Positions 1-52,015 of a stretch of DNA of 64,000 nt are shown piece after piece. The notes beneath the pieces are model-generated. The model saw only the letters and a list, made by a program, of their open reading frames with translations. It ran no database searches and had not been told where the DNA came from. This DNA is from an uncultured bacterium. Its GTDB lineage: Bacteria; Armatimonadota; UBA5829. Location of the stretch: positions 7,170 to 71,169 of the forward strand of contig CAZFYZ010000003.1 of the NCBI GenBank assembly GCA_964523735.1. Direction: 5' to 3'. A program made the position numbers and the translations under genes. Within the stretch, counting starts at the first letter, position 1; every line of letters starts with the position of its first letter.

Positions 1-694
1 CGCTCGTCCGCTCTTCGACGAGCCGGCCGAGGCTGGAGGCGTGATCAAAATGGGCGCGCCGCACGTGGTCGACTTCGGCAAGAACATGCAGTACTCGCCC
101 GACGGCAAGGTCTATCTGGTCGCCCACGGGGCGATGGAATCCGACCCCAACCCACGGGAGGCGAACCTCAGTTGGTGCACGGGAGACCAGGTCTACATGG
201 CTCGAGTCCTGCCCGGCCCGGAGAACATGAACGACGCATCCAAGTACGAGTTCTTCGCCGGCCACGACGACCAGGGGCAGCCCATCTGGACAAAGGACTT
301 CTCGAAGATCAAGCCGCTGGTGGACTGGAACAACAACTGCGGCGGAGCGGCGATAACCTATAACCCAGGGCTGAAGAAGTACCTGCTGTGCATCAACGAC
401 GGGGGCAACACGATTTCGAAGATGAACACGTACGTACTAGAGTCCGACCTCATCACGGGTCCGTGGAAGCTGGTCACGTACATGCGCGACTTCGGCGAGC
501 AGGCCTACTTCGTAAACATCCCGTCCAAGTTCATCAGCCCGGATGGTCGAACAGCCTGGCTCTGCTACTCCGTTAACTTCACGAACGTCGCACTGCCCCA
601 TCTGCCGAAGCTCGGTTACAATCCGCCGGCCGGCCATCCGGTTGGCGACGCTTCACCCTTGGTGTGGCAGGAGATCAAGCTGCTGCCTGAGTGA
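1..694 (+). CDS. hypothetical protein, 5'-truncated by window edge (possible glycosyl-hydrolase/beta-propeller-like secreted protein)
   Basis: Open frame runs from position 2 with no upstream stop, so the ATG at 41 is internal. Stop TGA at 692-694. Codon usage is like the host. The last ~20 nt (ggtgtggcaggagatcaag) are reused in the downstream 47-bp repeat units. Confidence 0.6.
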   Translation, partial: ARPLFDEPAEAGGVIKMGAPHVVDFGKNMQYSPDGKVYLVAHGAMESDPNPREANLSWCTGDQVYMARVLPGPENMNDASKYEFFAGHDDQGQPIWTKDFSKIKPLVDWNNNCGGAAITYNPGLKKYLLCINDGGNTISKMNTYVLESDLITGPWKLVTYMRDFGEQAYFVNIPSKFISPDGRTAWLCYSVNFTNVALPHLPKLGYNPPAGHPVGDASPLVWQEIKLLPE

Positions 695-761
695 GTCGTC
701 AGACCCCGCACCGGCCGGGCTAAGCCGCTATTCCCATCGGCTCATAATGACGCCTGCCAGG

Positions 762-1120
762 GGCGTCGGAGACGCCCGCTACAGCCTTATGGTGTGGCAG
801 GAGATCAAGGCGTCGGAGACGCCCGCTACAGCCCTATGGTGTGGCTGGAGATCAAGGCGTCAGAGACGCCCGCTACAGCCTTATGGTGTGGCAGGAGATC
901 AAGGCGTCAGAGACGCCCGCTACAGCCTTATGGTGTGGCTGGAGATCAAGGCGTCAGAGACGCCCGCTACAGCCTTATGGTGTGGCTGGAGATCAGGGCG
1001 TCGGAGACGCCCGCTACAGCCTTATGGTGTGTCAGGAGATCAAGGCGTCGGAGACGCCCGCTACAGCCTTATGGCGTGGCAGGAGATCAGGGCGTCGGAG
1101 ACGCCTGCTACAGCCCTGTC
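762..1120. repeat. Tandem array of about 7.5 copies of a 47-bp unit (GGCGTCGGAGACGCC hairpin + CGCTACAGCC + ttatggtgtggcaggagatcaa)
   Basis: Unit starts were read directly at 762, 809, 856, 903, 950, 997, 1044 and 1091, giving a 47-bp period (not a multiple of 3). Each unit begins with the perfect palindrome GGCGTC-nnn-GACGCC. Copies differ by point variants (cag/ctg, cgg/cag). There are no unique spacers, so this is not CRISPR. Confidence 0.9.
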
Positions 1121-1232
1121 GCAACAGCCTCTGCCTACGCAGTTTGGCGCATTTCCCGCGGTACCAGTTATACTAGTAGTGCCAGCCTCTGGAGCGCGGA
1201 GTGGGCACTAACGGGCTGACAGGAGAACCATC

Positions 1233-1358
1233 TTGAAACTCGCTATCATCATCAAGTGGCTTGTGATAGCCGTCATCGCGGCGGGCGCCCTGTGGGGGAT
1301 CAGCGTACTCGGCGGCGATGCGCAACACGTCGCCGGCTGCGGCTGCGGAGGGCACTAG
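1233..1358 (+). CDS. candidate 41-aa small hydrophobic peptide (LKLAIIIKWLVIAVIAAGALWGISVLGGDAQHVAGCGCGGH), TTG start
   Basis: AGGAGAA Shine-Dalgarno sits 6 nt upstream of TTG. A single predicted TM helix is followed by a Cys/Gly-rich tail. GC3-rich codons are host-like. It falls below the 60-aa cutoff of the ORF track. Confidence 0.3.
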   Translation: MKLAIIIKWLVIAVIAAGALWGISVLGGDAQHVAGCGCGGH

Positions 1359-1431
1359 CACGCCGGCCTGACACCTCGCACGGAACGAACGGACAGCCCT
1401 CTTCTATCCAAGCCCCACCTCCTGGAATCGC

Positions 1432-1461
1432 TTGACCGTGGAGCCCGCGACTGAGTATAAT
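1432..1461 (+). promoter_or_regulatory. near-consensus sigma70-type promoter (TTGACC-18 nt-TATAAT) upstream of the polysaccharide locus
   Basis: TTGACC at 1432-1437 and TATAAT at 1456-1461, read directly. Such AT-rich consensus hexamers are conspicuous in a GC-rich background. Confidence 0.5.
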
Positions 1462-1487
1462 CTGTCTACCTCTGCCCTACGAAACGG

Positions 1488-2873
1488 TTGCCGGTAATGG
1501 TGATAATGAAAGACCTGCGCACGCGCATCGATCCTACAGTTGCGGATAGCGAACCGATACCGGATAGCTCTGTGGCAGCAGGTTGCGGAACCGAGAAGAC
1601 CCCGAGCATGCGTCGGAACTGCTCTTGGACGCTCGCAGGCAACTCCATTTATACGGCAAGCCAGTGGGGCATTCTTGTGGCGATGGCGAAGCTGGGAACG
1701 CCGGAGATGGTCGGGATGTTCGGACTGGCGCTGGCGATCACGGCTCCCATCCTGATGTTCCTCAATCTTGAGCTGCGCTCTGTGCAGGCGACCGACGCAC
1801 GCAATGAGTACCGGCTCGGCCATTATCTGGGCCTGCGGATCGTGACCTCCTCGCTTGCCGTGGTTACGATAGCCATTACGGCAGCCATCAGTTGCAGGTC
1901 CGTCGCGGCAGCCGCCGTCGTCATGGCGGTTGGAGCGTCCAAGGTCGTGGAGTCCATCAGCGATGTCCTCTATGGTTTCCTGCAGAATCGGGAGCGGATG
2001 GATCGTATTGCAGTCTCGATGGTCATCAAGGGACTGCTCGGGCTGACCGCACTCAGCACAACGTTGTATCTGACGCGGGACATCCTGACAAGCATACTTG
2101 CACTCGCGGCAGCGTGGGCAGTCGTTTTGGCGCTGTACGACATCCCTTCGACGCGGCGATTGCTGCGATCAGATAACACACTGTCATCACCTGCCGGCGA
2201 CTCCATGCGCCCGAAGTGGGATCGGGCGATTCTCAAGAAGCTCGCCTGGCTTTCGCTGCCACTGGGTTGCACGATGATGCTGGTGTCCCTGAACGTCAAC
2301 ATTCCACGGTACTTCATCCAAGGCTACTTTGGCGAGCGTCAGCTTGGGCTTTTTGTGGCTGTTTCGTATCTTATGGTGGCAGTCAGCACAATAGTGAACG
2401 CACTCGGGCAGGCGGCCTGTCCAAGACTCGCGCGCTATTACAGCGAGGAACCGCACGGCCGAGCATTCCGTTCGCTTTTGGTTAAGCTAAGCGGCTTGAT
2501 CGCCGCTCTCAGCCTGTTTGGCGTTCTGGTTGCGCTGTTCGGTGGGCGACAGATCTTGACTGTCATCTACCGGCCGGAATACGCCGCCGGGGCTGACTTG
2601 TTTGTCTGGGTCATGGCGGCTTCAGGCATTGGAGGCGTTGCGGTGATTCTCAGATATGGGTGCATCTCTGCCCGGCGATTCGCACCGCAGCTCTCTCTGT
2701 GGGTGATTGTAGTAGGAGCAAATGCTCTTTCCTGTCTGCTGTTGATACCAAAGTACGGTATCAACGGCGCCGGCATGGCCATAGCGGCATCCGGTCTTGT
2801 GCAGCTCGTCGGCAACTGGCTCATACTCCTGCGTGCCGGACGTTCTAATGAAGGATTGGGGATCGAGACATGA
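1488..2873 (+). CDS. Wzx-type oligosaccharide/polysaccharide flippase (MOP superfamily); true start may be ATG 1608
   Basis: The protein has 12-14 predicted TM helices. Its N-terminus (SIYTASQWGILVAMAKLGTPEMVGMFGLALAI) matches the Wzx/RfbX polysaccharide biosynthesis protein family. It is followed by Wzy, GT4 and sugar-transferase genes. Confidence 0.8.
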   Translation: MPVMVIMKDLRTRIDPTVADSEPIPDSSVAAGCGTEKTPSMRRNCSWTLAGNSIYTASQWGILVAMAKLGTPEMVGMFGLALAITAPILMFLNLELRSVQATDARNEYRLGHYLGLRIVTSSLAVVTIAITAAISCRSVAAAAVVMAVGASKVVESISDVLYGFLQNRERMDRIAVSMVIKGLLGLTALSTTLYLTRDILTSILALAAAWAVVLALYDIPSTRRLLRSDNTLSSPAGDSMRPKWDRAILKKLAWLSLPLGCTMMLVSLNVNIPRYFIQGYFGERQLGLFVAVSYLMVAVSTIVNALGQAACPRLARYYSEEPHGRAFRSLLVKLSGLIAALSLFGVLVALFGGRQILTVIYRPEYAAGADLFVWVMAASGIGGVAVILRYGCISARRFAPQLSLWVIVVGANALSCLLLIPKYGINGAGMAIAASGLVQLVGNWLILLRAGRSNEGLGIET

Positions 2874-3937
2874 AGTACGTGGTCGCGGACAGGGTAGGAG
2901 TAGACCTTGACGACGCCTACCCGTGGGACAGGTCGCTGCTGGCGACCAGCGGCATAGCAGGGAACAGCACGGGGTCCTTCGAGGAGTGCCACAGCCGGGT
3001 TGTAGTACGTTACACAAAGAATATCGCGAAATCAGAGTGTCGCGAGGTGGCCGACAGGATCTACACAGGCAGCAGCGCGTTCATCAGTGACGAGTACGGC
3101 ATCAGGCTGACATTCCCGGACAGCAACACCGTTGTCATGGAAACCAGACAAGAGTGCGACGAGTGGTTCATGATACTCCTTCAGGCCATGCTCCTGCGAA
3201 GCGGCCTGTCGATGATACACGCCGCAGCGGTGTGTAAGGAGGATACGGCACTCTTGATGCCCTCTTGGGGAGGAGTCGGAAAGACAGCGTGTGTCACGAG
3301 ATTGATCAAGGAGCACGGCTGGAAACTGCTCGGTGACGATATCGTGCTCATCAGCGCTGACGCCGAAGTGATGGGCTTGCCGAAGCACTTCGTCATATAC
3401 CCGTATCATCGTCCGCTGTTTCCCGAACTGTTCAGCCAGGGCAAGGGGCCTATCTCTCCGAAGTCCACCAACGACTTGCTGACTAAGGTCGGCCGGGTAG
3501 TCAAGCCCGCACTCCGGATGGCGCCCGGTCTTCTGGCACTAGCCAGGCGGCACAACCCGCAGTCAAGAAGGGTATCGCCCTTCGACATCTTCGGCAAGTC
3601 GAACATCGGCACACATGCAACGGCCAAACGAGCTGTGTGGCTGGAACGAGCTATCGGAGAGGTGGCCGAGCCGATGAACAGGATGTCGCCCGAGAAGATG
3701 GCATCCATGAGCGCGAGCGTGACGCTAATGGAAGTGGCTGGGCCTCGACTGCCAGCCATGTGCGCGCTCTTGGGGTCTGGGCTGCTCGACTGCGATGACT
3801 TCTTCGGGAAGACCTACCAGATTCACAAGCAAGCCTATGATAAGATCGGCGACCTGCACCGCTTGACCGTTCCGGCGGATGTGCCGGTTGAGCAGGTACC
3901 TGACTGGGTCATCACACACGTCACGACTGAGGATTAG
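2870..3937 (+). CDS. HprK-related kinase domain protein (P-loop GGVGKT...LLGDD)
   Basis: The motif PSWGGVGKTACVTRLIKEHGWKLLGDDIVLI resembles the HPr kinase/phosphorylase C-terminal P-loop (GxSGxGKS...L..DD). Its start overlaps the wzx stop (ATGA). Confidence 0.55.
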   Translation: MKYVVADRVGVDLDDAYPWDRSLLATSGIAGNSTGSFEECHSRVVVRYTKNIAKSECREVADRIYTGSSAFISDEYGIRLTFPDSNTVVMETRQECDEWFMILLQAMLLRSGLSMIHAAAVCKEDTALLMPSWGGVGKTACVTRLIKEHGWKLLGDDIVLISADAEVMGLPKHFVIYPYHRPLFPELFSQGKGPISPKSTNDLLTKVGRVVKPALRMAPGLLALARRHNPQSRRVSPFDIFGKSNIGTHATAKRAVWLERAIGEVAEPMNRMSPEKMASMSASVTLMEVAGPRLPAMCALLGSGLLDCDDFFGKTYQIHKQAYDKIGDLHRLTVPADVPVEQVPDWVITHVTTED

Positions 3938-3942
3938 ATCGA

Positions 3943-5298
3943 GTGGGTTCATTCGACGTCACATACTGGATGGCGTTTGCCCACGTCGGGCTTACGGCCC
4001 TCGCCTTCGCCCTGACGGCGCGGCCACTGATCAGCACGTTTCACTGGTTCCTTCTGACGTCGTTTCTGGCGTTTGGCATAAGGCCGGCGCTGGCGGCATC
4101 AGTAGGGGGCTTTACGAACTATGACTCCGGCATAGGTTGGTACGCCTACAACTACGGACTGCTCTACCAGCTTCTCTTCGTCCTGTGTGTGTCCATCGCC
4201 TACATACTGCTGTCTTACCGCTACAGTAGTCGCCAGCCACGACCGCTTCTACGCGTGGTTCGACCCAGAGGTTTCTACGTGCTTCTGGCGACTGGACTAG
4301 TGGGCATTGCGGCTCTGCACGTGCTGTCTGGCGGTGGCTGGTTGCCAGGCGCACGAACCGGGACCATCAACTCCGTTGTCCCGGGGGGCAAGTACATATT
4401 CCCCATCGCGGTGATGTCGTTCTCGCTCCTGATACCGTTTGGGGTCATCGGATACATGAAGAAGGCGGGCTATCCGTGGTGGCTGGTGTTGCTGACCAGT
4501 CTACTGTCCCTGAGTGCGCTCAGCCTCCTTTTCATGAGAGGCATGGTGATAGCAGGAGTTCTCCTAATCTTCTGGGCAGCCGAAAAGGAGGGGAAGCTCA
4601 GGGTTAAGCACCTGTTGATTGGCCTGCTGGTGCTGTTCACCATTGGCCAGATGCTCCGACCGTTGGGCAAGTTCGTCGCCGCACGCTATCTTATGGGCGA
4701 GAGCGACGCCAGGTTCGCGATAGCATCCGCCCTTGCAGAGAGAATGAGTCCGTTGGACAAGGTGAGGGCACTCTTTCTGTACACCACAAATCTGGACCTT
4801 GCTGATTCCTGGCCGGTTGTCATCAACTATGTGGATGACAACGACAGGCTCGGGGGCCGCAGCTTCCTGGCAGTTCCAGCCAGGTTTGCCAGCACCAAGT
4901 TCCGCCTGGACTCAGGATTCCTAACCGGCAGTGATATTGTCAACGACTACTTCTATGGTGCCAACTACTACGATCTCAGTTTTGGCTTCAATGTGACCTT
5001 TGCCAATGAGCTGTTCCTGAATTTCGGTCCCCTGGGTCTAATCCTGGGCATCGTCCCCGGTTTCCTGCTCTTCCTTGCCGACAGGTGGATGCGCAGAATG
5101 AGAGCGATCTCACCGTCCGACGTCTTCATTGCGTACATCTGTTTTCGCGGCTTCACCAGCGAGCTTGCTCTCACATTACAGTGGGCTGTTGGCGCTATCA
5201 CGTTGGCTGTAGTTGTTGAGGTGCTGGCGAAGCTGCGACTAGGCAGCTTGCGCAGGCAGATACCGCGCCTTAAGGCCACTCTGGAGCAGGGGCCTTGA
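3943..5298 (+). CDS. polytopic membrane protein, putative Wzy/O-antigen polymerase-ligase-like
   Basis: About 10 or more TM helices with a large loop. It sits between the flippase and a GT4 glycosyltransferase. Confidence 0.5.
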   Translation: MGSFDVTYWMAFAHVGLTALAFALTARPLISTFHWFLLTSFLAFGIRPALAASVGGFTNYDSGIGWYAYNYGLLYQLLFVLCVSIAYILLSYRYSSRQPRPLLRVVRPRGFYVLLATGLVGIAALHVLSGGGWLPGARTGTINSVVPGGKYIFPIAVMSFSLLIPFGVIGYMKKAGYPWWLVLLTSLLSLSALSLLFMRGMVIAGVLLIFWAAEKEGKLRVKHLLIGLLVLFTIGQMLRPLGKFVAARYLMGESDARFAIASALAERMSPLDKVRALFLYTTNLDLADSWPVVINYVDDNDRLGGRSFLAVPARFASTKFRLDSGFLTGSDIVNDYFYGANYYDLSFGFNVTFANELFLNFGPLGLILGIVPGFLLFLADRWMRRMRAISPSDVFIAYICFRGFTSELALTLQWAVGAITLAVVVEVLAKLRLGSLRRQIPRLKATLEQGP

Positions 5299-11867: not shown

Positions 11868-13310
11868 CTACCATTCGGTGCGGATAGTGTAAGTGACGAT
11901 CGTCTCCCCGTCCTTTGCGACCTTGACGGGGAACTCGATTGTGTGGGCATCCTTCTTCACGAAGTCGTGGCTGTGCTGGATGACTTTCCAGTCCGACCAG
12001 ACGTGATCGACAACTTTGACCTCTACCGGGGTCTCTTTGTGGTTCCTGATCTTGACCTCAAAGGTCTCCTCGATGATGCGATCAGAGATCTTCTCGTAGT
12101 TCGTGCGCTTGTAGTCGCCGACTACATCAAACGCATCGCCCACGTAGAGCCTGATCTTCTCATCCTTGGGCGTGTGGTCGATGGTGTCCTCGCCGATGAA
12201 CTGCTGGCTGCCGGTATCGTCGAGCTTGTAGACTCGAACAGTGCCCTTCGGCAGCGGCATGCCCATGTTGTTCTGCTTCGAGTTCTTGGCCTCGAGAACC
12301 ACGTTCACCTTGTGATAGTTGGACGTGTCATACCCGCCGCCCGGATCACCCGTCCGGCCCGGATACCACCACGACCGCCACCAGTCACGCCGCCCGTCGT
12401 AGATCATCTCCTTGGTCACCGGCGCGTTCGACGCATTCAGAAGCGAGAGCTGCTTGGTCTCATTGTCCCTGATCGTGGTCGGCCGAGCCATCGTGTACAT
12501 GTGATACTCGAAGAACGACTTCTCCTGGAACTGGGGCTCGGCCTTTGCAGCAAATCTTCCCATGGCGCCGTAGCTGTCATACACAGGCTGGTTCCGGACT
12601 TGCCGTCTTACATCCCCAGCCATCAGAGTGAGCTTAGCGTTCTCGTAGGTCACGCCTGCCTGGTTGTTGAGCGTAACCCAGCCGGACAGGTCGAGCGCGG
12701 TGTCATCTTTGTTGACCAACGCAACGTAGTCAGCTTTCCAGCCGATCCCTTCGGTGATGTAGCTGATCTCAGCCTGCTGCTCGCCCGCGCGATCAGAGTC
12801 CAGTAGCCAGTTGAGGGTCGGCTTGGGGTGCAGCCCCTCGGGCATCTTCTCGAGCGAGATCATACCGCTTGGATTGAGCACGATCACGCCCTGATCGCTC
12901 TTTACGACCGTACCCCCATTACTCGGGGGGTTCAGCAGCACGCCTTGTTGGACGATGGGCTGGCCCTGCTCCGTTTCCCTGATGAACGTCAGCCTCTGCC
13001 CCACAGACTTGTTCAGGATGTTCTGTGGCGAGATCAGGTCGTACTGGTAGTTCTGCTCCAGTATGGAGACCGAGTTCGGCGCGGTGAACGACTTGAACAA
13101 CACGCTCGTGGGGTCGATCTTCGCGGCAACGTCCTCGACGTCGATCGAGGTGATGCCTTTCGTCAGGTTCACCGTGCGCACGTCCTTAACGAGCGCGAAG
13201 TTCTGGTTGTAGACCGTGAGCTGGACCGACTTCGGCCCCGACACCGTCTGCGCGCCGCAAGCCAACGACAGTGCGAAAATGAAGAGCAAGGTACTGCAAG
13301 CGAGTCTCAT
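11868..13310 (-). CDS. secreted DUF4139/TIGR02231-like protein (paralog 1 of a tandem pair)
   Basis: The MRLACSTLLFIFALSLA signal peptide has a GGAGG RBS. It is about 80% identical to the adjacent upstream gene. The family name is a tentative recollection. Confidence 0.7.
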   Translation of the reverse strand: MRLACSTLLFIFALSLACGAQTVSGPKSVQLTVYNQNFALVKDVRTVNLTKGITSIDVEDVAAKIDPTSVLFKSFTAPNSVSILEQNYQYDLISPQNILNKSVGQRLTFIRETEQGQPIVQQGVLLNPPSNGGTVVKSDQGVIVLNPSGMISLEKMPEGLHPKPTLNWLLDSDRAGEQQAEISYITEGIGWKADYVALVNKDDTALDLSGWVTLNNQAGVTYENAKLTLMAGDVRRQVRNQPVYDSYGAMGRFAAKAEPQFQEKSFFEYHMYTMARPTTIRDNETKQLSLLNASNAPVTKEMIYDGRRDWWRSWWYPGRTGDPGGGYDTSNYHKVNVVLEAKNSKQNNMGMPLPKGTVRVYKLDDTGSQQFIGEDTIDHTPKDEKIRLYVGDAFDVVGDYKRTNYEKISDRIIEETFEVKIRNHKETPVEVKVVDHVWSDWKVIQHSHDFVKKDAHTIEFPVKVAKDGETIVTYTIRTEW

Positions 13311-13321
13311 TGCGGTTCCTC

Positions 13322-14764
13322 CTACCACGTTGTCCTAATCGTATACGTCACGACCGTCTCCCCGTCCTTGGGAACCTTCACGGGGAACTGAATCGTGTGA
13401 GCGTCTATCTTGTTCAGCGAGTGGCTGGCCTCCGTGACCTTCCAGTCCGACCAGACGTGATCGACAACTTTGACTTCTACCGGGGTCTCTTTGTGGTTCC
13501 TGATCTTGACCTCGAAGGTTTCCTCGATCGTGTCGCGGCCGATCTTCCGGTAGTCCGTCCGCTTGTAGTCGCCGACTACATCGAAAGCATCGCCCACATA
13601 GAGGCGGATCTTCTCGTCCTTGGGAGTATGATCGATCGTGTCTTCGCCAATGAACTGCTGGCTGCCGGTATCATCGAGCTTGTAGACCCTGATGGTGCCC
13701 TTCGGCAGAGGCATGCCCATGTGGTTCTCTTTGGAGTTCTTGACCTGCAGAACCACGTTCACCTTGTGATAGTTCGAGGTGTCGTACCCGCCGCCGGGTT
13801 CGCCCGTCCGACCGGGGAACCACCAGGACCGCCACCAGTCGCCGCGGCCATCGAAGATCATCTCCTTGGTGACAGGCACGCCGGACGCGTTCAGGAGCGA
13901 GAGCTGCTTTGTCTCTTTGTCACGGATAGTGGTCGGCCGCTCCATCGTGTACATGTGATACTCGAAGAACGACTTCTCCTCGAACTGAGGCGCAGGCGCT
14001 GCAGACGGCATGGCAATGGCATTATCGTAGTAGAGGTGCTCTTCCTGAGGCTGCTGCCGTCTCACATCCCCAGCCATCAGCGTTAGCTTCGCGTTCTCGT
14101 AAGTCGCCCCTGCCTGGTTGTTCAGCGTTACCCATCCGGACAGGTCGAGGGCAGTATCGTCCTTGTTGACCAACGCGACGTAGTCCGCCTTCCAGCCAAT
14201 CCCGTTGGTCATGTAGCTGATCTCGGCCTGCTGTGCGCCCGCACGGTCTGAATCCAGAAGCCAGTTCAGCGTCGGCCTCGGGCGCAAGCCCTGGGGCATC
14301 CTCTCAAGAGATATCTGGCCCGTCGGGTTCAGCGTGAGCCTGCCGTCGTCGCCCTTCACCACGGTCCCGCCATTGCTCGGCGGGTTGAGCAGCACGCCCG
14401 ACTGCGCAACCGGCTGCCCCTGCTCGTTGAACCGCGTGAACGTGAGCCGCTGCCCCACAGACTTGTTGAGGATGTTCTCTGGCGAGATCAGGTCATACTG
14501 GTAGTTCTGCTCCAGTATCGTGATCGAGTTCGGCGCAGTAAGCACTTTGAAGAGGACGCTGGTGGGATCTATCCTGGCCGCCACGTCCTCTACCTCAATG
14601 GACGTCAGCCCCTTCTCAAAAGTGAGCCATCGCACGTCTTTCACAAGCGCAAAGTTCTGGTTGTAGACCGTCAGCGCGACCGAATTGGGCTGATTGGCCG
14701 CCTGCGCCCCGCAGACAGACGCCGCAACGGCAAGCAAGATCATTGATATGACGAAATGCTTCAC
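13322..14764 (-). CDS. secreted DUF4139/TIGR02231-like protein (paralog 2), GTG start
   Basis: The start is GTG with a GGAGG RBS 10 nt upstream. It has a signal peptide, MKHFVISMILLAVAASVCGAQA. It is tandemly duplicated with 11868-13310. Confidence 0.7.
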   Translation of the reverse strand: MKHFVISMILLAVAASVCGAQAANQPNSVALTVYNQNFALVKDVRWLTFEKGLTSIEVEDVAARIDPTSVLFKVLTAPNSITILEQNYQYDLISPENILNKSVGQRLTFTRFNEQGQPVAQSGVLLNPPSNGGTVVKGDDGRLTLNPTGQISLERMPQGLRPRPTLNWLLDSDRAGAQQAEISYMTNGIGWKADYVALVNKDDTALDLSGWVTLNNQAGATYENAKLTLMAGDVRRQQPQEEHLYYDNAIAMPSAAPAPQFEEKSFFEYHMYTMERPTTIRDKETKQLSLLNASGVPVTKEMIFDGRGDWWRSWWFPGRTGEPGGGYDTSNYHKVNVVLQVKNSKENHMGMPLPKGTIRVYKLDDTGSQQFIGEDTIDHTPKDEKIRLYVGDAFDVVGDYKRTDYRKIGRDTIEETFEVKIRNHKETPVEVKVVDHVWSDWKVTEASHSLNKIDAHTIQFPVKVPKDGETVVTYTIRTTW

Positions 14765-16146: not shown

Positions 16147-16566
16147 CTATCCCAGCCCTCTACCCGTAGTTGCGCAGACAAGCTGACCGTGCTTGACGCC
16201 GCGGGTGCTGATCAGCGTGTCAGCGATCTTCCTGACGCGCGCGCTCTCGCCTCGCGCGATGATCACCTCGAGGCAGTTGTGATGATCCAGATGGATATGA
16301 GTAGAGCAGAGGATGTGGTCGTGGAAGTCGTGCTGGACATCCGTCAGCACGCTGGATAGCTCGTGCTGATGGTGGTCATAGACTATCGTGATCGTACCGA
16401 CTACCTCCGCATCTGGCTCCGCCCACTCCTCCTTCACAAGCTCCTGCCGCACCAGGTCTCTGATGGCCTCCGAGCGCGACTTGTAGCCGCGTGACCCGAT
16501 CAGCTCATCGAAGCCGGAGAGCAGGTCGCCCTCCATAGAGACCCCGAACCGCTCCAATCCCGCCAT
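16147..16566 (-). CDS. nikR: nickel-responsive transcriptional regulator NikR
   Basis: The N-terminal RHH (MAGLERFGVSMEGDLLSGFDELIGSRGYKSRSEAIRDLVR) matches E. coli NikR. The C-terminal His/Cys nickel site is HHQHE...HDH...H.H.DHHNCLE. A GGAGG RBS is present. Confidence 0.85.
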   Translation of the reverse strand: MAGLERFGVSMEGDLLSGFDELIGSRGYKSRSEAIRDLVRQELVKEEWAEPDAEVVGTITIVYDHHQHELSSVLTDVQHDFHDHILCSTHIHLDHHNCLEVIIARGESARVRKIADTLISTRGVKHGQLVCATTGRGLG

Positions 16567-16664
16567 TGCGCTACACCTCCGTACCACGATCACATGCCAT
16601 CGTGTTACTACTACCGGGAGACACGTCTCTCCTCCGTGTAGAAAGCGGCGATGAATATCCGCAG

Positions 16665-16716
16665 TTGTAGCAGGCGTCTCCGACGCCTCCCAGGGCGTCA
16701 GAGACGCCCGCTACAG
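16665..16716. repeat. 52-bp MITE/REP-like element: TTGTAG-ca-GGCGTCtccGACGCC-tcccag-GGCGTCagaGACGCC-cg-CTACAG
   Basis: This is a single copy of the same hairpin family as the tandem arrays. Two 15-bp perfect hairpins are flanked by inverted hexamers. Confidence 0.8.
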
Positions 16717-16816
16717 CTCTATCGCGACAGCCGCACTCCAGAGCGCACTTGACAAGGCCGACAGACGGTGTTACGATCTTCCAATTAGTGCTACTTTGAT
16801 CGGAGGGCGAAGGAGA

Positions 16817-18124
16817 ATGAAGCAGATCGTATTACTGGTTGCCCTGCTGTGCTGCTTTCTGGCCGCGGGCTCCTGCAACGCATACACTGTCTGGGACTAT
16901 CAGGCACTGAATGCGGACGGAACAGGCAGCAACCCGCTGGTTGGCGCTGACCCGATCGAGGCGAACAGGATCACCATCGAGGGAATCGCGCTTGCCGGCG
17001 TGGACGAGCTGTGGAGCCCCGCGCAGATGTATACGGCGTTCGTGCAAGACGACACGGCCTCGAGGAGCGGAATGCAGGCATGGGCAGGAAGCTGGTGGTA
17101 TGGATCAAGCTGGCGGCCGACGGCCGACTACCCCGACTTCCAGGCAGGAGACCGAGTGAGGATCACCGGCTTGCTAGACGACCACAACGGCAAGGTCTTC
17201 ATCAATGACCGTCACTCGAGCGCGCCGGATACCAGATGGACCCTGACCGTGCTTGGGCACCCGGGTCTGCCTGATCCCGAGCTTCTGCCCGGCATATCGA
17301 ACTGCAACTACTTCGACCAGACGCGCACGGACGGCGGCGAACGATACCAGACCCGGTTCGTAATGCTGCACGGCGTCGAAGTCACGGATGGGACATGGGC
17401 CGGGGGAGGCCAGGTCACTATCTCGGACGGATCTGGTTCGGTCGACATGCGCCTTTCGGGGATGGGCAACTTCACCGGGACAGCGCAGCCGGTCGGTAAG
17501 ATCAACGTAGCCGGCATTATGGATCAAGAAGACACCGCCGCCCCATTCGTCGACAGCTATCGCGTCATCCTGAAGAAGTATGAGGACATCGCGCTGGCGC
17601 TCAATGCTTGCCGCGAAGCACGCGACCACGATAGCGAGCGCGTGGCATTGGTCAACAAGGTCGTCTCGAGAGTCTACGACGGCTCCTTCTACATACAGGA
17701 CCAGGATCGAACCGGCGGCATCAGGGTGATGAGCCCGCGTGAGTTCGAGCCGGGCGACGTTGTCAGCGTCCACGGCACGGTCTCCATGATCGACGGGGAG
17801 GCCGCGATCACTCCGCGATACCTGACGCTCTCCAAGGCAGCTCCCAAGCCTCTCCTCGTAAACAGCAAGACGCTGTGGGGAGAGGGCGGGCTGGATGCGA
17901 CCGGCTTGCTGATCAGGTGCTCGGCGACCGTGGGCGCGGATCAGGGTGATGGAAGCTGGACAGTGAAGGATGATAGCGGCAGGACGATCCTCGCCAGGAC
18001 TAACGGCCTCGCGATGCCCCCGCCCGGCACGCGGGTCGCGATCACCGCCGTCGCCACCAGGAACACCAGTGGCGTGCCGGTCCTGCTTGTCGCCAGTTCG
18101 CATGACGCTCAGGTAGTTGAGTAG
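16817..18124 (+). CDS. secreted hypothetical protein
   Basis: Signal peptide MKQIVLLVALLCCFLAAGSC. No family was recognised. It overlaps the next gene by 8 nt. Confidence 0.65.
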   Translation: MKQIVLLVALLCCFLAAGSCNAYTVWDYQALNADGTGSNPLVGADPIEANRITIEGIALAGVDELWSPAQMYTAFVQDDTASRSGMQAWAGSWWYGSSWRPTADYPDFQAGDRVRITGLLDDHNGKVFINDRHSSAPDTRWTLTVLGHPGLPDPELLPGISNCNYFDQTRTDGGERYQTRFVMLHGVEVTDGTWAGGGQVTISDGSGSVDMRLSGMGNFTGTAQPVGKINVAGIMDQEDTAAPFVDSYRVILKKYEDIALALNACREARDHDSERVALVNKVVSRVYDGSFYIQDQDRTGGIRVMSPREFEPGDVVSVHGTVSMIDGEAAITPRYLTLSKAAPKPLLVNSKTLWGEGGLDATGLLIRCSATVGADQGDGSWTVKDDSGRTILARTNGLAMPPPGTRVAITAVATRNTSGVPVLLVASSHDAQVVE

Positions 18125-27220: not shown

Positions 27221-27416
27221 GGAGCTGACGCTCCACAAGAAACAAACGATGACGATAACGAACTGCACAACCAGGTTGAACGCAGCGTTCGATTACCTTG
27301 AATCGAGGGCGCATAGTCTGCGCATGCTTGAAGACGGCATGTGCATAGCGCAACACTTCTTCATCGGGAGAGACGTCTAGAGCCCACTGCGACCGCGTGT
27401 CGTAGTGGGCTTTTTT
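27221..27416 (+). ncRNA. candidate ~195-nt small RNA or cis-regulatory leader ending in a strong intrinsic terminator
   Basis: The region lies between the consensus promoter and the terminator (12-bp stem GCCCACTGCGAC/GTCGTAGTGGGC, loop CGCGT, then TTTTTTGTT at 27381-27416). The only internal ORFs use rare codons (ata, aca, agg, ttg, caa) and lack an SD. It sits immediately upstream of the HNH gene. Confidence 0.5.
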
Positions 27417-27450
27417 GTTAGCGGATAGCCTTACGGAGCATCCAAAGAGC

Positions 27451-28017
27451 GTGAATCACGAAGTCCTGGTACTGAATAGCGATTATGAGCCGCTGAATAT
27501 CTGCAACATCCGGCGCGCGATGAACCTCGTCTTTATGGGGAAGGTGGACATTCTCCACGAGGACTCGATCGTGCTGCACTCGGTGTCGCGTGAGTTCCGT
27601 TCGCCCTCGGTGGTCAGGCTGAAGAGCTATATCAGACGGCCGAGGCCGGAGTTGAGGCTCTCCAGGCGAAGCATTCTCGCCAGGGACAACTATACCTGCC
27701 AGTACTGCGGCCACTCGGGACACGACCTGACAGTGGACCATGTCATCCCACGCCGCTTCGGCGGGCCTACGAGCTGGGACAACCTGGTGTGCTGCTGCAA
27801 GCGCTGCAACACGAAGAAGGGCGACAAGACGCTGTCTCAGATCGGATTTGCGCTGCGTGTGCCGCCTCGCAAGCCGCGTTACGTGCCGTTTATCAGCCTG
27901 ACCAAGTTCATCTCCGGCGCACGCAATGAGGTGTGGCGGGATTACCTGCCAATATTCATCAGCGCCAGCGATTCCTACTCAGCCAAGCGTGATATGGTTG
28001 GGCACGGCGCCGGCTGA
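27451..28017 (+). CDS. HNH endonuclease
   Basis: HNH motif CQYCGHSGHDLTVDHVIPRRFGG...WDNLVCCCKRCNTKKGDK. The ORF-track start at 27415 is a TTG inside the terminator U-run. I propose GTG 27451 (VNHEVLVLN…), which matches the usual N-terminus of this family. Confidence 0.75.
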   Translation: MNHEVLVLNSDYEPLNICNIRRAMNLVFMGKVDILHEDSIVLHSVSREFRSPSVVRLKSYIRRPRPELRLSRRSILARDNYTCQYCGHSGHDLTVDHVIPRRFGGPTSWDNLVCCCKRCNTKKGDKTLSQIGFALRVPPRKPRYVPFISLTKFISGARNEVWRDYLPIFISASDSYSAKRDMVGHGAG

Positions 28018-28776: not shown

Positions 28777-28818
28777 GTATTACGCGCGTTGTAGGAGGGT
28801 TCTCTGAACCCCGTGGTT

Positions 28819-29150
28819 GGGCGTCGGAGACGCCTCCTACAACGGAGCGTTCACCAGACCCCAACATTGGGCGTCGGAGACGCCTTCTACAACGTAGCGT
28901 TCACCGGACCCCGGCATCGGGCGTCAGAGACGCCTTCTACAACGTAGCGTTCACCAGACCCCAACATTGGGCGTCGGAGACGCCTCCTACAACGGAGCGT
29001 TCACCAGACCCCGGCATCGGGCGTCGGAGACGCCTCCTACAACGGAGCGTTCACCGGACCCCGGCATCGGGCGTCGGAGACGCCTCCTACAACGGAGCGT
29101 TCACCAGACCCCGGCATTGGGCGTCGGAGACGCCTCCTACAACGTCAGCT
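28819..29150. repeat. tandem array of about 6.5 copies of a 50-bp unit (GGGCGTCGGAGACGCC hairpin + TCCTACAACGGAGCGTTCACCAGACCCCGGCATC)
   Basis: Unit starts at 28819, 28869, 28919 and so on, giving a 50-bp period. It has the same GGCGTCnnnGACGCC-yC-CTACA core as the 47-bp array. It abuts the stop codon of the minus-strand gene at 29145. Confidence 0.9.
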
Positions 29151-31244: not shown

Positions 31245-31346
31245 GGGTGCGTGTTCCTTAGGGAGATATTATACCACGGCCAGACGGCCGAGCTTGCCAA
31301 CGTGCGGGCAAGGACAAGACCCGTTCGCGTCGAATGATATCCTGGA

Positions 31347-32867
31347 ATGGCAAACACAGTAGATCGCGAGACACTGAGCATGCTCCCAGACCTGCCCGAG
31401 CTGGAGTCGGTGGAGGCCAACATTCGCGGCCACCTGATCGCAGTGGTTGTTGCGTTGGTCTTCGCGGGAGGCTTCCTGTCTGTCATACTCTGGGTCTATC
31501 TGACAGCTCTGCAATCCACGGCCGATCTGCGCAACATCATTGTGATCAGTGCGGCGATATCAGCGGGCCTATGCCTGTGGCTGCTCTATCGGCTCGTCTT
31601 CGACGACTTCGCCTGGCATAGCGACAGCACGGGTCTGTTTCAACGCAACCTTGTTCGCCGCAAGTTCACTCCGTGGGACCGGATGAGCGGAGCTCCGGCG
31701 AGGCTCATCAAGCTGGCAACTCAGATGTACAGTCTTACTGCGCTTGCGGCCTCGGTTTGGCAGCATTGCAGGAGGCATAGAGTACCAGGTGCGGAGTTAT
31801 CTATGCTAGCGCAGAGCTTCTGGGGTGTGGTACCAGACGAAGTGCCGACGGTGATCGAGTGGGAGGACCCCAAGAACGTGCGTCGCGCCTACCGCGCGTG
31901 GGTGGCGACCGGCTTAGTGCTTGCGGCAATCGGCTTGGGGCTGTTTGCCGCATCGTTCGTCTGCCGATGCGCCGACGACCTCCGCTTCTTTGCATTCATC
32001 CTGGGACTGTATGTGCCACTGTTCGTGCTTGTTCACGCGTTCGGGTTGCGGTCTCGAGCCTCTTTCGTCCAGCTCGATTCGCTGTCGCTTCAGGTGCATA
32101 CGCTGAGAGGGCTAATAGGACTAGAAGCCGCTCAGGTGGTTCGCGCCAGGTGGCTAGCTGATGGGCTGAGTCTGCACACAGCAGAACAGCGAGTGGTGAT
32201 TCCTTCCGGCGTGGAGCACGAGGAAACTGGCAAACTCATACTCGCCATCGTCAGATGGTTGAGGTCGGCGGCTCACCCAATTCCGGTCACCATACCACCA
32301 TCGTTGCGCTCATACCCGTGTGCCAGCCCGGAGGAAGCCAGCGAGATAGCTGCTGACACGGCCAAACTGAGAACGAGCCTTGGCGAGAGGATCGTATCGG
32401 CCGCCCTCCCAATCATGCTGCTGGTGGTCCCGGCTCTCGGGGCATCGTTCGACGGGTCGATGAACCGCGTCATCGGTATGGCTATTGCGGGGGGAGGTGT
32501 GGTGCTGGCGGCTGCCATCTGGTGGCTGGCGAACAGTTACTCCATGATTGCCGACTCCGACGGGCTGACGAAGACATTCCTGTGGTGGAAACGTCGCTTG
32601 CTATGGATTGATGTCAGCGACTATACGCAGAGCAGACCGATGGGCAGCCGGAGCAGAGACGTCAGAGCATACGGGACAGTGCAAACGTTTCGAACTGCGG
32701 ACGGCCGCATCGCGATGCGGTTCTCTCTGGATGTTGGATCGGGTAAGGACCGGGAACGCCTCATGAGATTCATCCACGGCCGCCTCGCCGAGCATCTGCC
32801 GCCTGAGAAGCTCAACAAGCCCTGGAAGTCAAGACCGTGGGAGCCGCCCACGGCCTTGACTGAGTGA
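31347..32867 (+). CDS. hypothetical polytopic membrane protein
   Basis: Multiple TM segments. No family was recognised. Confidence 0.6.
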   Translation: MANTVDRETLSMLPDLPELESVEANIRGHLIAVVVALVFAGGFLSVILWVYLTALQSTADLRNIIVISAAISAGLCLWLLYRLVFDDFAWHSDSTGLFQRNLVRRKFTPWDRMSGAPARLIKLATQMYSLTALAASVWQHCRRHRVPGAELSMLAQSFWGVVPDEVPTVIEWEDPKNVRRAYRAWVATGLVLAAIGLGLFAASFVCRCADDLRFFAFILGLYVPLFVLVHAFGLRSRASFVQLDSLSLQVHTLRGLIGLEAAQVVRARWLADGLSLHTAEQRVVIPSGVEHEETGKLILAIVRWLRSAAHPIPVTIPPSLRSYPCASPEEASEIAADTAKLRTSLGERIVSAALPIMLLVVPALGASFDGSMNRVIGMAIAGGGVVLAAAIWWLANSYSMIADSDGLTKTFLWWKRRLLWIDVSDYTQSRPMGSRSRDVRAYGTVQTFRTADGRIAMRFSLDVGSGKDRERLMRFIHGRLAEHLPPEKLNKPWKSRPWEPPTALTE

Positions 32868-46648: not shown

Positions 46649-46700
46649 TTGTAGTCGGCGTCTCTGACGCCGTCCGAGGGGTCAGAGACCCCTGCTACAG
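46649..46700. repeat. 52-bp MITE/REP-like element: TTGTAG-tc-GGCGTCtctGACGCC-gtccgag-GGGTCagaGACCCC-tg-CTACAG
   Basis: It has the same architecture and length as the element at 16665-16716. Confidence 0.8.
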
Positions 46701-49864: not shown

Positions 49865-49950
49865 GGGGACGTGGCGGAATGGCAGACGCGCTTGGTTGAG
49901 GGCCAAGTGAGCTTAAGCTCATGTGAGTTCGACTCTCACCGTCCCCACCA
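49865..49950 (+). tRNA. tRNA-Leu (anticodon GAG), class II with long variable arm, CCA encoded
   Basis: The acceptor stem is GGGGACG/CGTCCCC. The anticodon stem CTTGG/CCAAG has the loop TTGAGGG, giving anticodon GAG. The T-arm is GTGAG-TTCGACT-CTCAC, with discriminator A plus CCA. The ORF-track ORF at 49871 starts inside it. Confidence 0.9.
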
Positions 49951-49957
49951 ATTGAGA

Positions 49958-49990
49958 GTCGCCGATCCGACCGGCGGCTTTTTCGTTTTG
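49958..49990 (+). terminator. hairpin + T-tract after the tRNA (GCCG-atccgac-CGGC TTTTTCGTTTT)
   Basis: Read directly from the sequence. Confidence 0.4.
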
Positions 49991-50062
49991 TGTCCTCTGG
50001 AACTGCCCCATCCTGAGCGCGTCTCGGTCTTCGACATTTGCATCACAGAAAGACACTATCCA

Positions 50063-52015
50063 ATGAGAAGACTGGTTCCCTTTCTGATTCTTTCCATCTG
50101 GCTCCTGGCTGCCGCGTGTGCATCGTTCGCGCAGGCTGGCGACAAGACGCCTGCTGCCGACGAAGTGCAGGCCGAGTTCGCGATGCCCATCTACCGCAAC
50201 CCTTCGAAGGCCGAGCTTACGGTGGTCGTCCCCAAGGCGATGGCCGAACTGCGCGCCGCTTCGGTCTCCGTTGTCTCTCCCGAGGGTAAGGAGGTCTGGA
50301 ACGGGAGCTTCAGGCTCTCACCCGGCCGCAACGCCTGTGTCCTGAAGAACATCGGCTCCATTTCTCCGGGACGCTATATGGCCACGGTCACGGTAGGGAA
50401 GACCTCGATGAAGCGCATGCTGCGCATCGAGCGCATCCCCGCAATGTCGCGGCCCACCGGTCCCATCGGCTTTCGCAAGATCTTCTTCACGCCCGATGAC
50501 TGGCTCTTCAAATCGATCCGCAACCTCGAGATTCGCTATTCCAAGCCCAAGCTTACGGAGGCCTACCACTCCTCCAGTCCCGACGTGGTGAACCTCTACG
50601 GCTCCTCCTTCGGCCGCACCGTCGACGGCACCTACGTGATCCGGGGTGTTGAGCACCCCTACCGCCGCGGCTATCTCTATTCCAGCGAACCCCGTAACTT
50701 CACGGTTCAGAGCCCGTCTCCCGATGGCCCATATGTGCCTGTCGAGACCGTGCCTAAGATAGAACCGTCGAAGGACATCTTCAAGAGTTACCATATCCTC
50801 GGATGGGCGGACGGAGGCCGTCAGTATGAGATGTATGACCCCGCCACTCACGGCACCTACGCCTTGAGCGACATCGGTATCATCCAGAACATAGAGGCCT
50901 ACGACTTCGGCTGCGTAAAAGCCGGTTATCGCACCTACTGGGTCGTTGCGAATACTTCGTCCGGCAAAACTGTTTTCCTCCGAAACACGCCGCTCTTCCG
51001 CGACGTTCCCCTCTACGGTGGCGACGATTTCGACAATGGCTTCACCACCAACGACAACTTCGGTAACTCGTGGCTCTCGGAAGATGGCAAAACGCTCTAC
51101 CTGGCCCGGGGCCAGACCGTACGCCGTTTCGCTCCCTACGACGTGCCTTACGATCTGCTGCCCAACAGTAGCCGCATACTCACCATCTACAGTACCGCCG
51201 ACGGCGTCGACTGGCATTACTGCCACTCCATCTCTTCGTGCGGTCCTATCGACGACCCGTTCTCGCAGCAGTACGGCGCCGACATTCAGTTCCTGCCTGA
51301 CGCCGGGCTCCATCTCGCTTTCGTCAACGCCTACGACAGCAAGAGCCAGCAGATCTATCTCGACCTGAAATACAGCCGCGACGGCATCAATTTCTACGAC
51401 TTCACCGACCCCGAACCGTTTGCCAAGACCGCCAATCCCTTCGACTGGTACTTTGGCGAGTTGTTCACCTCACATATTGTCCAGGTCGGCAACCGGTACT
51501 ATCAGCTTGCCTCCGGCTCCTCGCTACCGCACTATTTCGCCGAGCCCCTGTTCCGCCACAACTCGCAGAGCGAGATTACGGCCGAGGATTTCAAGTCCCT
51601 CTTCGCCAACCGCCGCTTCGCCGAGAGCCTTCCTTACTTCGAGTCGCTGGGCGGCTGGGAAGGTTTGGCCAAGCACGCGCGCAACGGCCATTACTCCGTG
51701 GGGGTGATGTCCTACCGTGCCGACGGCTGGTTCGGCGTCCGTGCCGGCAGCCGCGAGGGCGTCTTCGTCACCCGTCCCATCAAGGGAGGCGGCGCGCTCT
51801 CCGTCAACGCCTGTGTCGCCAAAGGTGGCCTGCTCTGCATAGAACTGCTGGATGCGAAGGGCCGTGTGCTCCGCGCCGCCACCATCCGGGGAGACAGCAT
51901 CAAATCCCCTGTCTTTGCGATGCCGGAAGGCGATTTCTGCCTCCGCGTCACTATGCGCCGCACCGACCTCTACACGATGTATATCGAACCGCGACCCCCT
52001 GTCGGTCGCAAGTGA
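50063..52015 (+). CDS. secreted hypothetical protein with atypical (C3-biased) codon usage
   Basis: The start is MRRLVPFLILSIWLLAAACASFAQA. Its codons are dominated by tcc, ttc, tac, acc, aac and gac, unlike the G3-biased neighbours. It lies immediately after tRNA-Leu. Confidence 0.7.
   Translation: MRRLVPFLILSIWLLAAACASFAQAGDKTPAADEVQAEFAMPIYRNPSKAELTVVVPKAMAELRAASVSVVSPEGKEVWNGSFRLSPGRNACVLKNIGSISPGRYMATVTVGKTSMKRMLRIERIPAMSRPTGPIGFRKIFFTPDDWLFKSIRNLEIRYSKPKLTEAYHSSSPDVVNLYGSSFGRTVDGTYVIRGVEHPYRRGYLYSSEPRNFTVQSPSPDGPYVPVETVPKIEPSKDIFKSYHILGWADGGRQYEMYDPATHGTYALSDIGIIQNIEAYDFGCVKAGYRTYWVVANTSSGKTVFLRNTPLFRDVPLYGGDDFDNGFTTNDNFGNSWLSEDGKTLYLARGQTVRRFAPYDVPYDLLPNSSRILTIYSTADGVDWHYCHSISSCGPIDDPFSQQYGADIQFLPDAGLHLAFVNAYDSKSQQIYLDLKYSRDGINFYDFTDPEPFAKTANPFDWYFGELFTSHIVQVGNRYYQLASGSSLPHYFAEPLFRHNSQSEITAEDFKSLFANRRFAESLPYFESLGGWEGLAKHARNGHYSVGVMSYRADGWFGVRAGSREGVFVTRPIKGGGALSVNACVAKGGLLCIELLDAKGRVLRAATIRGDSIKSPVFAMPEGDFCLRVTMRRTDLYTMYIEPRPPVGRK

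Follow-up and report, generated by a model that had tools for sequence, protein, structure and literature searches.

The stretch of DNA analysed here (the window, 64,000 nucleotides, from an Armatimonadota lineage) carries one family of small palindromic elements at four loci, 762-1120, 16665-16716, 28819-29150 and 46649-46700, all of them (4/4) intergenic. Two of the loci are tandem arrays, neighboured by genes for a DUF4185 protein, a polysaccharide flippase, CarD and HGD-D. The other two are single inverted doublets, one located midway between the 5' ends of the divergent gene nikR (minus strand, start at 16566) and an ORF starting at 16817, and the other between the convergent DUF308 and fliG genes. 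Inverted doublets of REP arms are termed REPINs (Bertels and Rainey 2011, PMC3116915). The features referred to below are as follows.

660..679, plus strand: source of the array 1 spacer, inside the 3' end of the DUF4185 gene, codons for VWQEIK.
3' end of the DUF4185 gene: pseudo-site resembling the REP head, GGTGTGGCAGGAGATCAAG.
749..761, plus strand: remnant of a left REP arm, GACGCC and the spacer TGCCAGG, directly upstream of the first REP of array 1.
762..1113, plus strand: array 1, eight REP arms GGCGTC-RGA-GACGCC-YG-CTACAG in a single orientation with a 47-bp period.
1114..1129, plus strand: right-hand extension of array 1, CCCTGTCGCAACAGCC, homologous to CTCTATCGCGACAGC.
16660..16731, plus strand: mobile unit of ~72 bp, composed of CGCAG, a 52-bp REPIN (16665-16716) and CTCTATCGCGACAGC.
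28789..28842, plus strand: founder REPIN of array 2, 54 bp, left arm TTGTAGGA-GGGTTC-TCT-GAACCC, right arm GGCGTC-GGA-GACGCC-TCCTACAA, orthologous to the single REPIN of a close relative (L148 5990-6043).
28795..29144, plus strand: array 2, seven tandem in-register copies of a 50-bp segment.
46649..46700, plus strand: 52-bp REPIN, arms GGCGTC-TCT-GACGCC and GGGGTC-AGA-GACCCC.

Both arrays and both 52-bp inverted doublets have in common the hairpin GGCGTC-NNN-GACGCC with NN-CTACA after it. The motif GGCGTCNNNGACGCC occurs 18 times in the window, every time at one of the four named loci, with 0.00 occurrences expected from 100 dinucleotide shuffles, and the wider pattern of hairpin, NN and CTACA gives 20 matches against 0.12 expected. 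Read from the tag, a REP arm consists of TGTAG, 2 nt, a 6-bp stem, a 3-nt loop and the second stem half; the single-strand form bearing the GTAG tag and the stem is TGTAGGAGGCGTCTCCGACGCCGAT. In all 20 of the 20 arms of the window CTACA or TGTAG lies 2 nt from a perfect 6-bp stem, and the same holds for at least 65 loci elsewhere. The array stems are invariant in 15 of 15 units and one loop position is either G or A (GGA/AGA). GTAG-tagged hairpin families other than the GGCGTC type were not found in the 64-kb window. The single elements at 16665-16716 and 46649-46700 are exactly 52 bp long each and have TTGTAG and CTACAG at their borders, as the preliminary description of this DNA held, but the hexamers are not a perfect inverted repeat, which is limited to the pentamer TGTAG/CTACA. 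In the doublets at 16665, 46649 and 28789 the tags point outward and each single strand forms one long hairpin, with folding energies of -17 to -23 kcal/mol and z-scores of -3.8 to -7.1.

For the analysis of stem covariation, arms were picked by tag, loop and tail only and the stem was ignored, which avoids circularity. The stems among the arms so picked were GGCCTC/GAGGCC, GCGGTC/GACCGC, GGGGTC/GACCCC, GGTGTC/GACACC, GGCGTT/AACGCC and GGCGAC/GTCGCC. In the alignment of these arms 97.7% of pair cells were paired and changes on both sides were observed at five of the six pairs, a level of covariation reached in none of 500 shuffles, and slid controls were only 20-53% paired. Hence the hairpin is under constraint. 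The REP hairpin is kept as a structure, and the sub-families differ by complementary changes.

According to the text of Di Nocera, De Gregorio and Rocco (2013, PMC3733652), REPs with an unpaired GTAG tag are present in more than 80 species, Planctomycetes included; in some of the families a dinucleotide separates the tag from the stem and there is a 3-nt tail, many GTAG-tagged REPs are head-to-head dimers, and REP clusters reiterated in tandem along with flanking DNA have already been described there. Compared with that text, the elements of the window and their relatives resemble GTAG-1 and GTAG-2 in the unpaired GT[AG]G, the dinucleotide, the 6-bp GC stem, the 3-nt loop and the tail GAT. With the superfamily as described in the same source they share complementary stem sub-families, head-to-head dimers, tandem clusters with flank, an apparently mostly extragenic location with some copies that look intragenic, and presence in the Planctomycetes-Verrucomicrobia group. 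In contrast to the superfamily, the host here is probably an Armatimonadota lineage and no flanking RAYT (REP-associated tyrosine transposase) was seen; the R. baltica families GTAG-20/21 differ in that, as the source has it, they encode different peptides when intragenic. The stem GGCGTC/GACGCC was not found in the text or supplements of PMC3733652, figures apart, and a full-text literature search for the arm sequence returned no relevant paper. The elements are members of the GTAG-tagged REP/REPIN family, and both the elements and their tandem derivatives are of an already known kind.

TRF finds both arrays, in agreement with the two periods of 47 and 50 bp first described. Array 1 is reported at 762-1115 with a period of 47, 7.5 copies and 95% matches. 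Its 47-bp unit consists of a 23-nt REP arm, CCTTAT, which is the start of the right extension, and a 19-nt copy of a gene end, matching 661-679 exactly. Homologues of the right extension, CTCTATCGCGACAGC, follow the REPIN at 16717-16731 and are present in the relative's copy at L148 470-484. The left arm remnant at 749..761 suggests from its sequence that the ancestor of array 1 was a REPIN doublet. The non-hairpin part of the unit had been taken for flank; it is, however, not adjacent DNA but an exact 19-20-nt copy of window positions 660-679 within the DUF4185 gene, 82 bp upstream of the first repeat of the array. The C-terminal motif LQEIKLL or close variants of it are present in most of the 60 DUF4185 homologues among the matches listed, and a 79%-identical DUF4185 orthologue has identical codons at the gene end and no REP downstream. 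Because the gene end is conserved and the orthologue is without the repeat, the array copied the gene and not the reverse, and the array is recent. Since the unit does not include the 82 bp that separate the source segment from the first REP, two illegitimate junctions are needed, and ~1 nt of microhomology can be read off the sequence at each. There is a likeness between the captured segment GTGTGGCAGG and the REP head TTGTAGCAGG; going by the letters of this single case, it may be more than accident.

All three forward frames are open across array 1 (ORFs 543-1211, 794-1219 and 841-1176, 111-222 aa), which together with the regular spacing of palindromic repeats could speak for a CRISPR-like or guide-RNA array or for a protein-coding repeat. 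The "spacers", however, are of identical sequence in every unit and no cas-like gene lies beside either array, so the initial view that these are not CRISPR holds. Furthermore, neither of the two periods, 47 and 50 bp, is divisible by 3, and the spurious ORFs of array 1, including 543-1211, have no Pfam match. A guide-RNA or coding nature of the arrays is thus next to impossible. Gene callers may nevertheless annotate such ORFs, and the arrays are a warning for gene calling.

Array 2 was originally placed at 28819-29150 with 6.5 copies of 50 bp. The period was confirmed, whereas extent and count are replaced by seven in-register copies at 28795-29144; TRF reports 28817-29144 with a period of 50, 6.6 copies and 92% matches. 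The 50-bp segment is the REPIN lacking the left TTGTAG but with the 2-nt flank CG added, and an intact left tag TTGTAG at 28789-28794 precedes the array. Both hairpins are found in copy 1 only. Copies 2-7 share a non-palindromic left part that agrees in register with the left arm of the founder at 16 of 31 positions, not a significant similarity, and no match for this part was found elsewhere in the window or in the relative.

The copy numbers of 7.5 and 7 rest on one short-read MAG assembly (reads SRR8925774), and the arrays could in principle be assembly artefacts of such a metagenome bin: in an independent assembly of this run by Logan the contig stops within array 2, 1.15 units in, and no independent contig spans array 1, the Logan contig starting ~1 kb downstream. 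Against this, the array units are not identical but differ at scattered positions, the Logan contig agrees exactly with the window over one full unit of array 2 and the beginning of another, and smaller arrays of the same REP are present in unrelated assemblies. The terminal 57 nt of the Logan contig match five positions of array 2. Because this contig independently ends inside array 2, the repeat exists in the reads, and an artefact is very unlikely.

The close relative is represented by Logan contigs of run ERR13624443 (L148), with 80-92% nucleotide identity to the window. All four comparable sites (4/4) differ between the two. In the gap between the HGD-D and CarD genes the relative has one 54-bp REPIN, 2 nt past the HGD-D stop; array 2 takes its place in the window. 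The site upstream of nikR is empty in the relative, where it reads GGAGTGTGGCT followed directly by ATTCATCG, and the window carries an insert of 65 bp (16664-16728). This insert is flanked by a 7-bp direct repeat, ATCCGCA (16657-16663) and AGCCGCA (16729-16735), identical at 6 of 7 positions, and in BLAST the same 7 nt of the relative align to both sides of it. Conversely, at the 3' end of an esterase gene the relative carries a 73-bp copy, 91.8% identical and composed of a REPIN preceded by CGCAG and followed by CTCTATCRCRACAGC, and the site is empty in the window. The REPIN downstream of fliG is present in the window and not in the relative. Thus a discrete unit of ~72 bp comes and goes, and one of the arrays grew from a single element. 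The element at 16665, first described as a 52-bp unit, does contain a 52-bp REPIN, but the mobile unit is larger (~72 bp, 16660-16731). With the GTAG tag, the GC stem, the folding of the doublets, the covariation and the single REPIN of the relative, the initial proposal of a REP-like palindromic family with tandem derivatives is borne out.

Several further observations were made in these sequences. To the left of the relative's element at the esterase gene, L148 394-411 is an inverted copy of the right extension (GCTGTTGCGATAGAT) and supplies the last codons and the stop codon of the esterase gene; it may be the remnant of a second element in opposite orientation. A segment of ~1.5 kb in the window (31280-32822, with a 506-aa ORF at 31347-32867) is missing from L148, in which the PTPS gene directly follows a 950-aa gene and the BLAST alignment breaks at both edges of the segment. 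At 11868-14764 of the window two adjacent minus-strand ORFs of 486 and 480 aa match one DUF4139 gene of the relative (83% and 80%), which looks like a tandem gene duplication. An HNH endonuclease gene (27415-28017) adjoins CarD and has the same neighbour in the relative (L148 6815-7381); no link of this gene to the repeats was found. The tRNA-Leu(GAG) at 49865-49950 overlaps the listed start of a 714-aa ORF (49871-52015), and the true start of this ORF is therefore further downstream.

Three of the four loci of the window lie at the 3' ends of genes; the genes on either side are co-directional for one of the three and convergent for the other two. The claim that all copies lie at 3' ends or between convergent genes is correct for these three and fails for the element at 16665, which is in the divergent promoter region of nikR. 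Array 2 occupies the whole convergent CarD/HGD-D gap and its end abuts the HGD-D stop codon. This arrangement raises the question of whether the arrays are kept by selection as RNA elements that stabilise or terminate transcripts, rather than being neutral by-products of repeat instability. That the stems are invariant in all 15 units of the arrays, with either G or A at the loop position, is in line with such a role, as is a statement in PMC6006769 that REPs elsewhere raise mRNA stability. However, one copy is in a promoter region, and there is no U-tract: a run of T is absent after the hairpins, whose stems are followed by CG/TC-CTACA, and 0 terminator-like sites were detected in the one region scanned, window positions 500-1600 around array 1. 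An intrinsic terminator was rejected on these two grounds. Rfam was searched with the whole window at gathering thresholds and with both arrays at E <= 1; there was no match for the repeats and only a tRNA was returned. Moreover, neither the close relative nor the 79%-identical orthologue has the arrays, thus these are recent and dispensable. Retention of the arrays as selected RNA elements is, on balance, rather doubtful. A putative effect on the host, in which the hairpins stabilise or attenuate transcripts at 3' ends, is plausible.

The distribution of the element was scanned in one genome per species with the pattern GGCGTCNGAGACGCCNNCTACA. The family had been called genome-specific; instead, the arm TGTAGGAGGCGTCTCCGACGCC(GAT) is found at at least 65 loci, nearly all of them in Pirellulales among the matches listed, where the carriers include Botrimarina colliarenosi and Lacipirellula MAGs. 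The element of Pirellulales reads TGTAGGA-GGCGTC-TCC-GACGCC-GAT, followed by 30-45 variable nt and an inverted arm, whereas the spacer of the doublets in the window has only 6-10 nt. Smaller arrays of the same REP are present in other genomes, with periods of 40 bp (L032), 31 bp (L038) and 32 bp (L062). By a crude measure, the open frames around elements elsewhere are shorter (median 646 nt) than those around random positions (1293 nt), and some of the elements look intragenic. One GGCGTC-type REPIN (L057 3227-3300), located inside a 472-aa ORF (2957-4375, minus strand) with in-frame read-through ...GGVTSASETPPTT..., appears to be an intragenic copy.

As for the host, the best named relatives of the HGD-D protein encoded beside array 2 are only Armatimonadota MAGs, with 65-74% identity, and NCBI Armatimonadota assemblies preserve the gene order PTPS, radical-SAM and HGD-D, convergent with CarD. 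A Pirellulales origin of the window, considered at first, was rejected on account of these protein matches and the synteny. No copies of the repeat were found in ~75 kb sampled from more distant Armatimonadota genomes. By sequence, the repeat is common to the Armatimonadota lineage of the window and to Pirellulales. This sharing fits the patchy, transfer-prone distribution of tnpA-REP genes that is described in the text of PMC6006769.

A RAYT gene was found neither in the 64-kb window nor around 65 listed copies elsewhere, using as queries motif regexes, seven published RAYT/TIRYT sequences in tblastn and two HMMs, with one exception. The sole RAYT near a copy (L057 1680-2318, 212 aa) is in the Pirellulales MAG contig JBBDWY010000064.1 and is flanked on both sides (1596-2360) by a second REP family, GTAGGTCCCGCCTGCCGGGCGGGACC (GTAGGTCCCGCC...). 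The 79 metagenomic relatives of this RayT have the same second-REP flanks, often with tandem REP arrays of 31-196-bp period, and a scan of these loci with the RAYT alignment detected a GGCGTC-type REP beside the RAYT in none of the 79. RAYT-REP systems thus occur in the REP-bearing Pirellulales, and tandem arrays are typical beside them.

Small, non-coding, dispersed elements bounded by inverted repeats are also known as Correia, ERIC and RUP MITEs, in which terminal inverted repeats are recognised by DDE transposases and target duplications are consistent. The elements studied here share this general appearance, and if they were classical MITEs they would be deletion derivatives of a DDE-type insertion sequence, moved by cut-and-paste through terminal inverted repeats with a target duplication of fixed length. 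The doublets do have inverted ends of ~25 bp. Furthermore, the one filled/empty pair, the 65-bp insert upstream of nikR, is flanked by the direct repeat ATCCGCA/AGCCGCA, and IS200-like transposition yields none; this is the one observation at odds with HUH/IS200-like movement. On the other hand, in 29 Pirellulales doublets among the matches listed, flanking direct repeats were not above the control level, as expected for HUH-type movement and in contrast to Correia, ERIC and RUP. In addition, CGCAG... and ...CTCTATCGCGACAGC, with which the 72-bp unit begins and ends, are not mutual inverted repeats, the conserved GTAG tag beside a covarying hairpin is a REP signature, and no longer, transposase-carrying version of the element was found in ~0.5 Mb of flanks. 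An origin of the family as classical MITEs is therefore improbable.

The elements bear a closer comparison with REPIN-RAYT systems (PMC3116915; TnpA-REP, Ton-Hoang et al. 2012). As in these, an inverted doublet forms a long hairpin with outward tags, presence and absence vary between related genomes, and no target duplication was seen in the 29 Pirellulales doublets. They differ from REPIN-RAYT systems in that no cognate RAYT was found here, in the one insertion with a 7-bp direct repeat, and in the extra extensions of 5 nt on the left and 15 nt on the right of the element in the lineage of the window.

In E. coli, a BIME-2 unit contains two REPs that alternate in orientation and are connected by fixed linker motifs. 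In both cases a REP module has multiplied head-to-tail within a single intergenic region, and the copy number is variable. In contrast to BIME-2, however, the unit of array 1 is one REP with a captured piece of coding sequence, and copies 2-7 of array 2 have lost the second hairpin. Neither array is built of two opposed REPs with fixed linkers, and they are not BIME-2 units.

We consider it highly probable that the elements are GTAG-tagged REPINs, most likely moved by a RAYT, and that both arrays arose by local, lineage-specific tandem amplification of one resident element. According to this model, each arm would form a hairpin as single-stranded DNA or RNA, and a doublet a longer one. By analogy with characterised REPs, the copies were most likely moved by a RAYT (HUH/Y1) encoded elsewhere in the genome, which would recognise the foot of the hairpin together with the GTAG tag. 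Array 2 would have started from a single REPIN, of which a 50-bp segment was duplicated and brought to seven copies, and in array 1 a REP arm would have been joined to the 19-nt copy of the gene end via the two illegitimate junctions with their ~1 nt of microhomology. From two copies onward, the copy number would change through slipped-strand mispairing or unequal exchange of the 47-50-bp units.

A more far-reaching version would see a REP system, nearly identical base for base in Pirellulales and one Armatimonadota lineage, that was horizontally acquired, is still active and moves by a 7-bp-duplicating route unlike IS200-like peel-and-paste, with the HUH enzyme also driving the arrays, for instance by rolling-circle-like copying of an excised unit. 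We regard this combination as quite improbable. If it were true, rolling-circle-like copying would explain the pseudo-tag GTGTGGCAGG (compared with TTGTAGCAGG) captured in every unit of array 1.

REP and REPIN elements are among the commonest bacterial repeats, and what we describe is no new kind of system. The preferred reading of GTAG-tagged REPINs with two local amplifications adds to what is known a cross-phylum distribution, a four-site comparison with a relative and a captured gene end. Natural before/after cases of REP/REPIN movement are scarce, especially outside Proteobacteria. The four comparisons made here provide a clean insertion, reciprocal presence/absence, a loss or gain at a third site and the change from one element to a seven-copy array. 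Array 1 is moreover a dated case of an array capturing coding sequence, and the comparisons are useful for modelling REPIN dynamics.
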